Notes: generated from the sequence alone by a model not told the origin. A stretch of DNA of 64,000 bases from Candidatus Dormiibacterota bacterium (GCA_036844485.1 DAIUFS010000004.1:4925-68924), one strand, 5' to 3'. Positions 12,615-22,384 are shown, numbered from the stretch's first letter. Numbers and translations are program-made.

Positions 12615-12692
12615 GCGCCTATAGCTCAGCCCGGATAGAGCGTCTGACTACGGATCAGAAGGTCGCGGGTTCAAATCCTGCTGGGCGCGCCA
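12615..12692 (+). tRNA. tRNA-Arg (anticodon ACG), CCA encoded
   Basis: Manual cloverleaf: acceptor GCGCCTA/TGGGCGC, D-arm GCTC..GAGC, anticodon stem TCTGA/TCAGA with loop CTACGGA, T-arm GCGGG-TTCAAAT-CCTGC, discriminator G, then CCA. Confidence 0.9.
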
Positions 12693-12693
12693 C
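12636..12693 (+). repeat. attL: 58-bp direct repeat, the 3' portion of the intact tRNA-Arg
   Basis: tagagcgtctgactacggatcagaaggtcgcgggttcaaatcctgctgggcgcgccac is identical base for base to 22327-22384. The flanking bases differ on both sides. Confidence 0.9.
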
Positions 12694-12777
12694 CTCCCTT
12701 CAGATGGGGGGGTTCGTATTCGAACCAGTCCCTCCACGGGGCTTCCCAACGCCGTAGCAATAGGGTACCATCTGCAT

Positions 12778-13743
12778 GTGTCAACCGCTACAGTACACAG
12801 CCTCCGACGCCAAAGGCTCTCTCCACCCGACCCGAGCCCATTCGAGCGGCTGATCGGCGACTACCTCCAGGAGCAACGCGCGGCCGGCGCCGCACCGAAG
12901 ACAATCCAGGTCTACGGGTATGCACTGGAGACGGTCATGCTCCCGGCCTTCCGCGACGCCGGGGTGAGCGAGCCCTCACAACTGACAAACCGCCACCTCA
13001 ATGACTTAGTCATCGGGCTGCTCGACGGCACCCGCTCCCGGTCCGGCCGCCCCCTGGCCAAGGCGAGCGTCCACAGCTACACCCGGGCGATCAATGCCTT
13101 CCTGGCCTGGGCCTCCGCTCAGGGCGAGGCGGTCACAGCCAAGGCACAGCGACCGAAGCCCGGCAAGCGCGTGCTGGACGTCCTCAACCGAGACGAGGTC
13201 CGAGCCATGGAGGATGCGGCCTCGGACGAGCGCGACAAGCTCATCGTCCGCGTCCTCGCCGACACTGGCATCCGGCTCGGCGAGCTGCTCAAGTTGACCG
13301 CCGGCGACCTGCTCCTCGAGGGTCGGAAGAACTACCTCAAGATCCAGGGCAAGGGTGACTCACAGCGCAAGGTACCGATCCAGCCGGCTCTCGCCGCTCG
13401 TCTCAGCCGCTACGTCCAGCGCACCCGGAAGGAATCCCGAAGCTCGCTGATCTTTCTGACCAGTCGGCGCCGGCCTTCCACGCAAGAGTACGAGCCCCTC
13501 ACAGATTCGGGCACGCAGCAGATGGTCAGGAACCTCGCACTCCAAGCCGGCCTCACCAAGCGGGTCTACCCCCACCTCTTCCGGCACAGCTTCGTCACCG
13601 AGCAACTGCGGCGGGGCATCAGTCCGATCCTCCTGGCTCAGATCGTCGGGCACACGTCATTGACGATGATCAACGAGGTCTACCAGCACCTGAACCAAGA
13701 CGATGCCCACGACGCTCTGATGAGGTCGCTGCTCGCCGACTGA
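12778..13743 (+). CDS. tyrosine recombinase / phage integrase (XerC/D-like)
   Basis: 321 aa. The N-terminal SAM-like domain is followed by a catalytic region (ADTGIRLGELL...HLFRHSFVTEQL...GHTSLTMINEVYQHL), consistent with the R..HxxR..Y signature. GTG start. Confidence 0.9.
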   Translation: MSTATVHSLRRQRLSPPDPSPFERLIGDYLQEQRAAGAAPKTIQVYGYALETVMLPAFRDAGVSEPSQLTNRHLNDLVIGLLDGTRSRSGRPLAKASVHSYTRAINAFLAWASAQGEAVTAKAQRPKPGKRVLDVLNRDEVRAMEDAASDERDKLIVRVLADTGIRLGELLKLTAGDLLLEGRKNYLKIQGKGDSQRKVPIQPALAARLSRYVQRTRKESRSSLIFLTSRRRPSTQEYEPLTDSGTQQMVRNLALQAGLTKRVYPHLFRHSFVTEQLRRGISPILLAQIVGHTSLTMINEVYQHLNQDDAHDALMRSLLAD

Positions 13744-14000
13744 CGGCAGTGAGTCGATCCAGGGCGCAGTCGAAGCACTCGCCCTCGAAGATGGCGTCGG
13801 CGGTCTGGCAGGTCACGCACAGGCCGAGGGACTGCCGGCGCGGCTCGCTGCGGAGAGTGGGTGGCGAACCGCCAGAGGGGGGCTCAGAAACGGCAGACGC
13901 ACGCCCACTCTCGCGCATGCCGGCGGACTATACGCTCCTTAGAGCGCGAGCGTATGCGGGCTAAGCGCGCCGGCCGTGCTGTGCGGTCCTGTCGCCGACC

Positions 14001-14018
14001 CGTTGCCAATTGGCAACG
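14001..14018. promoter_or_regulatory. perfect 18-bp palindrome, candidate operator upstream of the XRE gene
   Basis: CGTTGCCAATTGGCAACG is its own reverse complement. It lies 34 bp upstream of the GTG at 14053. A -10-like TAGACT at 14041-14046 sits 6 nt before the start codon, which suggests a leaderless transcript. Confidence 0.5.
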
Positions 14019-14052
14019 CTTGGACGACCGCGCCACTCCCTAGACTGCCCCT

Positions 14053-20852: not shown

Positions 20853-21361
20853 GCCGGCTCGTCCGTGGCGATGGCGGCGTCCACCGCCAGCGCGAGCCCG
20901 ACGTGGTCGACGCCGCAGGCCGCACTCACGACCCGCAGCGCAGCCGTGATCCGTTTGTCGAGGGTGCCGCGGACGAAGGCCAGCCTCGCCACCTCGCCGA
21001 GCAGCGCCGCCACCTGGTCATCGCCGAACGACGCCAGCGCAGGGCGGCCGTTCGGGTTCATGGTGATGGTGCCTTTCCAGGCCCGCGGCTTGAAGCGCTC
21101 GCGGCTTCGGGGTGGGAACAGGTCGGGGAACGACAACCCCGCGCTCATCACGATGTCGGCATTCGCACAGGACGCGAAGCAGTGCAGCAGCACGCGCCCG
21201 TCGTCGCCCTCCTTGACGCTGAGGGAGGCTTGGCGGTCATCGTGGTTCGGACACCGCGCCGTCCATCCGGCGCCGCTGCGACGCGTCCCCTCGAGGTGGC
21301 TCAGGACGCGGTCGACTGGCGTGGTAAAGTTAGGGTTGGAGCGCGGTGGCTGCAACACCAT
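20849..21361 (-). CDS. primase-type zinc-finger protein (no recognisable catalytic primase domain)
   Basis: WTARCPNHDDRQASLSVKEGDDGRVLLHCFASC is the CHC2-like pattern seen at the N-terminus of phage/plasmid primases. The start is taken at the ATG at 21361. ATGA-type overlap with the helicase start. Confidence 0.6.
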   Translation of the reverse strand: MVLQPPRSNPNFTTPVDRVLSHLEGTRRSGAGWTARCPNHDDRQASLSVKEGDDGRVLLHCFASCANADIVMSAGLSFPDLFPPRSRERFKPRAWKGTITMNPNGRPALASFGDDQVAALLGEVARLAFVRGTLDKRITAALRVVSAACGVDHVGLALAVDAAIATDEPA

Positions 21362-21674
21362 CCTCCGCAAACGCCCTGGTCCTGGTCGGGACTGGGGCGT
21401 TTCTTGTCTCGGCGTCGGCAAGCAGTTCACCGGCTCCGTGCAGCACGGGCATTGCCACTAGGACGCGGACGATCTCTCGCAGGGTGCGCTCAGAGATGGG
21501 TGCTCCATTCCGGCATCTCGTGAGGGTGTTCGGGCTGACGCGGGCAGCTCTGGCGACCGCGCCGGCGGTGGCGCCGCGGATGCGAAGCTCTCGCCGAAAG
21601 CGAGCGGGATCGAGGCGCAGTCCAGCATCACGTCGCTCCGATGCGAGCAGGGTGGTTGACGGTTGCTGCTCCAT
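21330..21674 (-). CDS. XRE-family HTH regulator (head of the replication operon)
   Basis: 114 aa with RIRGATAGAVARAARVSPNTLTRCRNGAPISERTLREIVRVL, an HTH_3-like pattern. Confidence 0.7.
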   Translation of the reverse strand: MEQQPSTTLLASERRDAGLRLDPARFRRELRIRGATAGAVARAARVSPNTLTRCRNGAPISERTLREIVRVLVAMPVLHGAGELLADAETRNAPVPTRTRAFAEDGVAATALQP

Positions 21675-21716
21675 GCGTAGACCATACGGAAACCACCTCG
21701 CTTAATCCATCACGAT

Positions 21717-22220
21717 ATGGATTGGCCAAGGCAGTCCGCGATAGTTGGAGAGCTGATGGAAGGTTGGATGAAGGCAGAGCCGATCGGCGACGCCCTCGAC
21801 TTCAGAATGGAGGTGTTTCGTGGGGACGGGCTGCACATCACGGCCACGGTGCACGTAGCCGACAACGGCCGGCGACTCGTGTGTCGCGCCCTCGAGTTGA
21901 GCACCGAGGATGGCCAGATCGACAGCCATCTACTCCGCGCGTTGAGCCTGGCAACACTGTGCCGGCGAGCCGCCGACCACATGGTAGGGCGGATCCCCCT
22001 GCCCAAACCGCGGTCGCTGACCGATGAGTTTCTCGCGCAGGTTGCTGTCGTCTACCGCCAGGCGATCCACAGAACGACGTGGACGGCTGTCGCCGAACTG
22101 CAGCAGTCCTGGTTCGGGGAGAAGAGGCCTGCAACGGAGACCACCGCTCGGCGCTGGATAGCCCTAGCTCGCGAGGCTGGGCACCTGAGGGAGACCATCA
22201 AGGGGCGCAAGGGAGGATGA
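21717..22220 (+). CDS. hypothetical protein with a possible C-terminal HTH, divergent from the XRE gene
   Basis: 167-aa ORF. A -10-like CTTAAT at 21701-21706 lies 10 nt before the ATG. The C-terminus TTARRWIALAREAGHL looks HTH-like. Confidence 0.55.
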   Translation: MDWPRQSAIVGELMEGWMKAEPIGDALDFRMEVFRGDGLHITATVHVADNGRRLVCRALELSTEDGQIDSHLLRALSLATLCRRAADHMVGRIPLPKPRSLTDEFLAQVAVVYRQAIHRTTWTAVAELQQSWFGEKRPATETTARRWIALAREAGHLRETIKGRKGG

Positions 22221-22326
22221 GGTCGCCGCCCTCACTCAGCGGAGCAGGCAGCCGTTGCAGGACAGAGCAACTGATCTGTCAACCGCTGTATCTGTATTCA
22301 AAAACCGGGGTCTAGCCGAGCGAATC

Positions 22327-22384
22327 TAGAGCGTCTGACTACGGATCAGAAGGTCGCGGGTTCAAATCCTGCTGGGCGCGCCAC
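22327..22384 (+). repeat. attR: duplicated 58-bp 3' fragment of tRNA-Arg (not a functional tRNA)
   Basis: Identical to 12636-12693. It lacks the acceptor 5' strand and the D-arm. Confidence 0.9.

Follow-up and report, generated by a model that had tools for sequence, protein, structure and literature searches.

An integrative island of Candidatus Dormibacterota with capsid and protease genes and no portal or terminase gene, a candidate phage satellite

The window analysed here, a 64-kb stretch of DNA (64,000 nucleotides; GCA_036844485.1, DAIUFS010000004.1:4925-68924), contains an island of 9,691 bp lodged in a tRNA-Arg(ACG) gene. The island codes for an HK97-fold major capsid protein and a prohead protease next to an integrase, regulators and a replication module (Table 1). 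Its length is the spacing between two copies of a 58-bp sequence that corresponds to the 3′ part of the tRNA gene. The original prediction, made from the sequence alone, had described this repeat as perfect, and all 58 positions are indeed identical; no other long direct repeat is found in the window. A tyrosine integrase put the island into the 3′ end of the tRNA gene, which duplicated 58 bp. Apart from tRNA-Arg and its partial copy, an Rfam scan of the island returned nothing.

Table 1. Features of the island and its integration site, with positions in the window
Feature	Position	Strand	Evidence
tRNA-Arg(ACG), complete, integration target	12615-12692	+	ARAGORN; Rfam tRNA 64 bits
attL, 3′ 57 nt of tRNA-Arg plus 1 nt	12636-12693	+	Direct repeat
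Tyrosine integrase, 321 aa, short XerC/D-like type	12778-13743	+	PF00589 1.4e-27; phrog_1 2e-39
XRE/Cro-type HTH regulator, 61 aa	14053-14238	+	HTH_3 1.8e-15; GC3 0.84; called in public copy
Prohead serine protease, family S78, 271 aa	15016-15831	-	PF04586 2.2e-22; phrog_80 1e-28
HK97-fold major capsid protein, 493 aa	15837-17318	-	PF05065 4.7e-29
p118 (p111), lineage-specific small protein directly upstream of capsid gene	17504-17839	-	Conservation
p91, zinc-ribbon protein (CxxCG...FCxxxC), opens head module	17841-18116	-	phrog_6975 3e-7
Non-coding region of ~400 bp between replication and head modules	18117-18512	-	Sequence, repeats
Small Cys4 protein, 134 aa, last gene of replication operon	18513-18917	-	GC3 0.80; public gene call
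Small Cys4 protein, 110 aa	18952-19284	-	GC3 0.83; public gene call; weak zinc-ribbon matches
D5_N / DUF5906 / Pox_D5 superfamily-3 (SF3) replicative helicase, 522 aa	19284-20852	-	Pfam; phrog_6088 1.6e-69
CHC2 zinc-finger protein, 169 aa	20849-21358	-	Zn_ribbon_DnaG 1.5e-4; phrog_6088 1.1e-12
Probable Cro-like XRE regulator, 114 aa, weakly supported	21330-21674	-	HTH_31 E = 2.9e-4; GC3 0.68
p150 (p167), winged-helix DNA-binding protein, 150-167 aa	21768-22220	+	HTH matches in family members
attR, partial copy of the tRNA-Arg 3′ part, 58/58 identical to 12636-12693	22327-22384	+	Repeat; partial Rfam tRNA match

As the G+C content of the window is 69%, plain lists of open reading frames (ORFs) are full of spurious frames. 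Genes were called using the G+C bias of third codon positions (GC3) and cross-checked against the public gene call on identical DNA, a 51.8-kb contig (L253) of the metagenome-assembled genome (MAG) GCA_036564445.1. The two sequences are 100% identical across 20.3 kb, a stretch that covers both repeat copies, which speaks against an assembly artefact. Four further datasets contain pieces of the interior of the island. All copies of this element are 99.9-100% identical and may represent one population or non-independent samples. As the long contig in addition shares the flanks of the island, these copies are uninformative on its mobility, and we rejected them as evidence of recent transfer.

The transketolase gene (tkt) adjoining the tRNA codes for a protein with 83-93% identity to those of Candidatus Dormibacterota MAGs. 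The host is thus a member of this phylum and not an actinobacterium. In all related loci (designated by L numbers) that were scanned and whose sequence reaches upstream of tkt, the tRNA-Arg(ACG) gene adjoins tkt. We found the site vacant in three genomes, L013, L014 and L015, whose tkt proteins are 83-87% identical to that of the window. There, the tRNA gene is joined to downstream genes, with those for a BON-domain protein and a DNA ligase coming within 100 bp, the same genes as those found after attR in the window. The host sequence after attR is that found after the tRNA in the empty sites, and when the island is removed from the window, the rebuilt attB site aligns with them across the junction. 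The closest relative, L008 (93%), likewise has no island. Thus, the original prediction of a mobile element was correct in that the island is an insertion and not a conserved locus.

Just past attR, at 22452-25065, lie host genes for the BON-domain protein, an ATP-dependent DNA ligase and a type IB topoisomerase, in an order conserved across related Dormibacterota MAGs. An extra stretch of 0.6-0.8 kb is found between the tRNA and the BON-domain gene in L008, L024 and L060. Other islands occupy the same tRNA-Arg gene. In L029, a second partial tRNA-Arg copy lies 8.1 kb off and the integrase is 42% identical, and in L022, where the island lies upstream of position 9824 as in L029, the integrase is 43% identical; neither has a capsid match. 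The tRNA-Arg(ACG) gene beside tkt is therefore an integration hotspot in Dormibacterota.

The gene content of the original prediction stood for the integrase, the zinc-finger protein, the D5 helicase, the capsid protein, the protease and the XRE regulator at 14053-14238, and in a weaker form for the second XRE protein. The translated integrase shows the R...HxxR...Y motifs and is 59-60% identical to those of L001 and L171, with a ratio of non-synonymous to synonymous substitutions (dN/dS) of 0.32. No excisionase was recognised in the island. The putative second XRE gene is the first of the leftward operon. It is absent from the public gene call and its HTH_31 match is below the Pfam cut-off; HTH_3 or HTH_31 genes hold the same position in L006 and L252.

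The third regulator, p150, belongs to a family of 28 hypothetical proteins, several of them from Dormibacteria, and some members match HTH_IclR, HTH_24 or DUF6214. It recurs in or next to islands that carry capsid or S78 protease genes (L003, L006, L171, L251 and L252), and it is divergent from the main operon in the window, L006, L251 and L252. This divergent position makes it a candidate master repressor. In the excised circle, p150, attP and the integrase gene would be contiguous and co-oriented, and divergent from the Cro-like gene. This layout resembles the integration-dependent immunity cassettes of Brujita-type phages, in which repressor gene, attP and integrase gene follow one another with a divergent Cro-like gene. 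We nevertheless rejected immunity of the Brujita type, as p150 has no similarity to the Brujita repressor and its stop codon is located 107 bp before the att core.

In the replication module, the zinc-finger gene (dN/dS 0.30) is translationally coupled to the helicase gene. Both proteins match the 'DNA primase' profile phrog_6088, of whose 772 positions the zinc-finger protein covers 6-74 and the helicase 342-743. A homologue of the zinc-finger protein, 61-66% identical, is coupled to an unrelated AAA_25 helicase in L001. The zinc-finger protein thus behaves as a portable module, and it is presumed to be an origin or priming partner. The product of the last gene of the operon has no family match. 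The four or five small Cys4 proteins predicted initially are reduced to three that are supported by GC3 bias or by the public call, namely p91 (17841-18116) and the products of 18513-18917 and 18952-19284.

The capsid protein (dN/dS 0.26) has a scaffold-like N-terminal extension of ~200 residues and shares ~30% identity with the capsids of Brujita, REQ1 and Gordonia phages in alignments that cover 89-92% of its length. The protease gene starts 5 nt past the capsid stop codon. Its product (dN/dS 0.42) has a CxxC...CxxC zinc ribbon at the N-terminus and shares the NHGxDP and YGxSFR motifs with all members of the capsid clade described below. The N-terminal part differs between loci: a zinc ribbon in the window (15700-15831), a DUF6582 domain in L003 (11479-12351), nothing in L001, and a long extension that is probably DUF6582 in L169 (3599-4555). 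A database protein of 594 residues, P0107, seems to be a fusion of DUF6582 and capsid-like sequence.

In close relatives, p91 and p118 are encoded by a conserved gene pair directly upstream of the capsid gene. p91 weakly matches the zinc-finger part of an HNH endonuclease PHROG; it is conserved in L001 and L003, and similar zinc ribbons are found in more distant members. p118, kept beside the capsid gene in L001, L003 and L185, is a near-orphan: an exhaustive HMMER search found four clusters among 1.84 billion representatives, and a word-indexed search gave just the query. Its AlphaFold2 model (pLDDT 80) consists of three strands and a helical hairpin. Marginal fold matches to COMM-domain-like proteins (E ~0.01) were not interpreted. 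We propose p91 as a candidate DNA-binding or packaging-specificity factor, and p118 as a candidate assembly or packaging accessory.

The non-coding region that precedes p91 contains a short repeat of 11-12 nt, TAGCGTCGGAT(T), with two exact copies and a third partial one within 70 nt of the p91 start; an inverted partial copy is found at 18267-18287. The blocks GAAGAAATAC, AGACAAGTG and TTTCCCGT are common to this region and to L001, which has different short repeats of its own at the equivalent place. The region matched no Rfam family and a promoter scan found nothing. It is located upstream of the head genes, as is cos in HK97-like phages. It might thus be a late promoter/operator, a late-control site or a cos/pac site, a candidate role that we infer from its sequence.

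Analyses of the island ORFs with Pfam and PHROGs revealed no portal, terminase, connector, tail or lysis family, and the long antisense ORFs gave no PHROG match. We also built custom profiles from 42 large terminases and 76 portals encoded beside homologous capsid genes in related phage contigs. In a six-frame search of the island with these hidden Markov models, the terminase profile reached a best E value of 0.15 and the portal profile one of 2.7, and no pseudogene fragments of portal or terminase genes were seen in any frame. The absence of portal, terminase, tail and lysis genes, on which the original prediction was built, is thus confirmed.

The prediction had also considered that the small ORFs might hide packaging functions or carry helper-interference or redirection cargo. 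No match to a small terminase, portal or head-completion protein was found among them, and the models of p118 and p150 show no small-terminase-like fold. As no unknown protein of the island resembles such proteins, a hidden packaging gene is unsupported. Similarly, Sid, Psu, Delta, Cpm, small terminase and Rpp proteins have no PHROG or Pfam match in the island. PADLOC matched no defence model and the only matches to cargo were generic HTH ones, so that no interference or defence cargo was identified. We rejected an actinomycete integrative and conjugative element or another conjugative element, as no FtsK/Tra-like gene is present. Outside of the island, the window consists of housekeeping genes, including leuS, valS, pntB and those of trigger factor, glycogen enzymes and a histidine kinase. 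A second att-like repeat is absent from the 64 kb. There is therefore no helper prophage nearby.

Relatives of the capsid protein, 60-87% identical, were found in soil and permafrost metagenomes, and some are annotated as Thermoleophilaceae. Wherever the flanking sequence suffices, they belong to a small island with an integrase, HTH regulators, a replication module, small proteins and the capsid gene, usually with the protease gene directly downstream of the latter. The replication module varies among members and may be of the D5/SF3, AAA_25, DUF3631, HTH_36 or Prim-Pol type. This architecture is shared, without portal or terminase genes, by L001, L003, L006, L171, L175, L181, L251 and L252. 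In L006, L168/169 and L180/181, the place of the p91-p118 pair ahead of the capsid gene is taken by a phage-type HNH endonuclease gene. According to Kala et al. 2014, as summarized in PMC10085698, the HNH endonuclease works with terminase in HK97-like cos phages.

Eight members could be delimited by att repeats, most of them tRNA-derived. They span 8,651 to 11,919 bp, with six at 8.7-10.1 kb (the window, 9,691 bp; L001, 9,813 bp; L006, 8,651 bp; L171, 10,060 bp; L175, 9,831 bp; L177, 9,304 bp; L181, 8,741 bp; L209, 11,919 bp). This narrow range holds despite different tRNAs, integrases and replicases.

To widen the comparison, 160 further loci were collected from IMG/VR and JGI metagenomes with a capsid profile and scored with the terminases and portals of the phages Brujita and Zirinka. 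At capsid identities of 43% and above with the window, a terminase or portal match is absent from every locus, 12-21-kb loci included. Conversely, most loci with capsids at most 42% identical have both, including nearly all of those with several kb of flank. The detection relies on two reference phages; nonetheless, the identity split is very clean. We placed 134 distinct capsids, of which 132 came from the loci and the other two from Brujita and Zirinka, in a neighbour-joining tree that carries no support values. There, the window falls in a clade with 32 members, and none of the 81 capsids linked to a phage terminase or portal is among them.

Gene order distinguishes the two groups as well. 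The capsid gene precedes the protease gene in all 13 clade loci that have a protease, whereas the protease gene comes first in all 79 phage-linked loci, as well as in annotated Brujita and Zirinka. Two loci with capsids 38-39% identical, L088 (= L195, an 8.7-kb contig that IMG/VR lists as viral) and L199, also have the capsid gene first and no terminase or portal match; the reversed order may thus extend past the clade as defined. Another locus, L152 (IMGVR_UViG_2698536451_000001, 14 kb), harbours three consecutive capsid-like ORFs (473, 401 and 410 residues) and a fourth capsid match, within 4248-8357 and 10651-11775, along with a D5-like helicase and a tyrosine integrase; it has no terminase or portal match. 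The arrangement suggests capsid paralogues arrayed in tandem within a small integrative element.

Together, these data bear on whether the island might be the cryptic remnant of a decayed prophage that has lost its terminase, portal, tail and lysis genes and has no life of its own. Complete actinophages possess homologues of its capsid and protease, and phiRv1 of Mycobacterium tuberculosis, to which it is compared below, has long been termed a prophage-like or defective element (PMC12268328). However, the att repeats are perfect, the integrase is intact and no portal or terminase debris was left in any frame. The reduced gene set recurs throughout a monophyletic capsid clade with a narrow size and a gene order of its own, whose members swap replication modules yet keep the head module, as is typical of an evolving family of mobile elements and not of decay that occurs independently in each. 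Furthermore, dN/dS values from pairwise comparisons with L001 or L003 are between 0.26 and 0.51 for all genes measured, with 0.30-0.51 for the integrase, the zinc-finger protein, p91, p118 and p150 (p167), although the NG86 method used is crude for GC3-biased genes. The lack of portal and terminase is thus a stable trait of the whole clade, which argues against decay. We consider a decayed prophage very improbable. The sequence data rather point to a long-lived lineage that would have retained a shell gene and little else.

It can also be envisaged that the capsid and protease serve mainly against a related phage, with mis-assembly or 'shell poisoning' as the means of defence, without the element itself being packaged and transferred. 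No packaging function was identified in the island, at 30-42% identity to phage capsids a co-assembly with the latter is conceivable, and, as is generally known and discussed in PMC10085698, known satellites combine interference with spread. Nevertheless, sizes held at 8.7-11.9 kb match a head-capacity limit, which a defence island does not have. The element also possesses its own replication module, its relatives carry HNH packaging nucleases, and the PADLOC search was negative. This makes a purely antagonistic role unlikely, albeit less so than decay.

The clade members with a capsid gene and no protease gene (L006 and L180/181) draw attention to yet another type of structure, a closed shell that forms independently of a portal and a helper, similar to an encapsulin or a gene transfer agent and carried on a mobile element. 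It is established that HK97 gp5 and gp4 alone make portal-less proheads in E. coli, and that encapsulins descend from HK97 capsids. However, no cargo enzyme or targeting partner is evident, unlike what would be expected of an encapsulin. The shell gene is paired with that of an S78 prohead protease, which, as the scaffold-like N-terminal domain, is typical of virion heads, and both are embedded in a satellite-like context of integrase, repressor and replicase. The size constraint also fits DNA packaging. We therefore hold such a shell to be highly doubtful. The same applies to the general proposal that no helper portal or terminase is needed, be it that closed portal-less shells, made with or without the protease, serve this lineage as an encapsulin-like compartment and thereby represent a living link from phage heads to encapsulins, or that they enclose the ~10 kb of the element by a route in which terminase has no part.

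The reading that we favour, with a probability of roughly 0.6, takes the island for an integrated 'shell-only' phage satellite, which would be mobilized by a helper as follows. In the quiescent state, p150 and the XRE proteins would silence the leftward operon, until a related siphophage of the HK97 type infects the cell or is induced and thereby lifts this repression. The element would then excise, replicate using the zinc-finger protein and the SF3 helicase, and express p91, p118, the capsid protein and the protease as a module. Its capsid protein, with its own scaffold-like domain, would assemble on the portal of the helper and be matured by the element's own protease. The resulting shell would be smaller than that of the helper and sized for ~10 kb, with T=3 or T=4 symmetry by analogy with P4 and SaPI. 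The helpers of P4 (11.6 kb) and of the Staphylococcus aureus pathogenicity island SaPI1 (~15 kb) have genomes of 33-44 kb and T=7 heads, from which the T=4 heads filled by the two satellites derive, and a genome of ~10 kb thus fits such small heads. The helper terminase might fill the shell under the guidance of a cis site, possibly the non-coding region upstream of p91, and perhaps also of p91 itself. Connectors, tail and lysis functions would be provided by the helper.

Several observations weigh against this scenario. No helper phage was identified, and neither an excised circle, nor an attP junction, nor a virion-derived copy was seen. A single-sequence capsid search of IMG/VR found no close relative, and the profile search of the same database returned only capsids 30-43% identical, mostly on complete phages, so that there is no virome evidence for the element. 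The closest capsids linked to a terminase or portal are just 39-42% identical to that of the window. With respect to packaging, no island ORF has a Pfam or PHROG match to a small terminase, and an HNH endonuclease and a recognised cos/pac site were not found in the element. In the replication module, the middle catalytic part of phrog_6088 has no counterpart, and a primase catalytic domain was undetectable. p118 has no significant sequence or fold match in PDB or BFVD, and the AlphaFold2 model of p150 (pLDDT 79) gave no fold match, sequence and fold searches of PDB being uninformative for this protein. Finally, we know of no experimental precedent for a satellite capsid protein that assembles on a foreign portal, and to our knowledge no helper was ever found for phiRv1 and phiRv2. 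We regard the satellite reading as well supported and only infer the dependence on a helper. The interpretation originally put forward, a capsid-encoding satellite, is supported: the island carries no portal or terminase homologue, its repeat is present in a public assembly and it is absent from related genomes.

The original prediction had likened the island to phiRv1 and phiRv2 of M. tuberculosis, and this comparison is justified by gene content and size. These elements harbour an integrase, an excisionase, a primase, a small 'terminase', a prohead protease and a capsid protein in ~10 kb (PMC12268328). They share with the island the integrase, regulators, a replicase of the primase/helicase type, small proteins, capsid and protease, as well as the lack of portal, tail and lysis genes and a satellite status deduced from sequences alone. 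In contrast with phiRv1, which uses a large serine integrase and a separate excisionase and is inserted in a repeat element, the island has a tyrosine integrase and is found at a tRNA; serine recombinases are also used by some mycobacterial candidates and by a more distant clade member, L193. The island has no gene recognisable as the 'terminase' Rv1578c of phiRv1. It also differs from both elements by its capsid-then-protease gene order, its p91-p118 pair and its host phylum.

Such elements have been classified previously, always in silico. De Sousa et al. 2023 described phiRv1 and phiRv2 as phage-inducible chromosomal islands (PICIs; PMC10085698), and the Mycobacterium 'candidate PICIs' of Abad et al. 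2023 combine an integrase with a major capsid protein, some of them at tRNAs (PMC10654092). The initial statement that they are poorly described in high-GC lineages is thus partly outdated, given the Mycobacterium candidates listed in these studies. Compared with the PICI model of SatelliteFinder (PMC10085698), the island has the integrase, primase-replicase and capsid components and lacks the small terminase; it would thus count as having four of the five core PICI components ('Type B'). In agreement with the 'forbidden gene' rule for PICIs, it has no tail, holin, portal or head-tail connector genes. The model calls for a regulator of the AlpA, MerR or Stl type beside the integrase or the replication module. 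The island has one XRE protein, a weak second one and a winged-helix protein, none of them of the AlpA/HTH_17 type; HTH_17 genes are present in the relatives L003, L006 and L181. The Sid, Psu and Delta genes that characterize P4-like satellites are lacking, as are the virion or lysis gene fragments and idiosyncratic content of defective prophages.

Similar to capsid-forming PICIs (cf-PICIs) and to the Streptomyces satellites MulchRoom and MiniFlayer, the island encodes its own HK97 capsid protein and protease, from which it would build a capsid instead of remodelling that of the helper. However, these satellites also code for a portal, adaptor, connector, terminases and HNH endonuclease, and tails are all that they take from the helper (PMC10690885, PMC10085698), whereas the island is devoid of a portal, head-tail adaptor, connector, both terminases and HNH endonuclease. 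It therefore falls outside of the cf-PICI definition, as portal, connectors and terminases are absent, and it would also need to borrow a portal and a packaging motor. It resembles classical PICIs, SaPIs and P4 by its size class (the PICI median is 9.5 kb), its site-specific integration at a tRNA and its organization, in which an integrase, divergent regulators and a primase-helicase are followed by a hijacking module; the alpha protein of P4 has a D5-like helicase. Those elements redirect the helper capsid through scaffolds (Sid, CpmA/B) and/or act through a small terminase or Rpp, and none encodes a full capsid. With respect to the capsid, the closest complete phages (~30% identity over ~90% of the length) are actinophages of the Brujita (cluster I) and Zirinka types, which also have a short tyrosine integrase. 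Unlike the island, these are complete phages of 47-52 kb, whose genes run in the order terminase, portal, protease, capsid, connectors and tail.

What is new is the Dormibacterota host, the monophyletic capsid clade found only in satellites, the reversed gene order, the p91-p118 pair and the regularity in size. The category itself is known, and the island adds to it a new lineage and variant as well as a new phylum. If the satellite reading is true, it may correspond to a third grade of hijacking, between classical PICIs or P4 and cf-PICIs, in which only the shell and the protease are replaced and the portal, packaging motor, connectors and tail are taken from the helper. It would also extend satellites to Dormibacterota, an uncultured phylum of soil and permafrost; our literature searches found no study of phages or satellites of this phylum. 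The capsid clade, the capsid-then-protease order and an att span of 8.7-11.9 kb could serve to mine for such satellites, which with current tools end up among incomplete PICIs or defective prophages. Lastly, this lineage would bring comparative support to the long-standing, unproven idea that phiRv1 and phiRv2 of M. tuberculosis are satellites.

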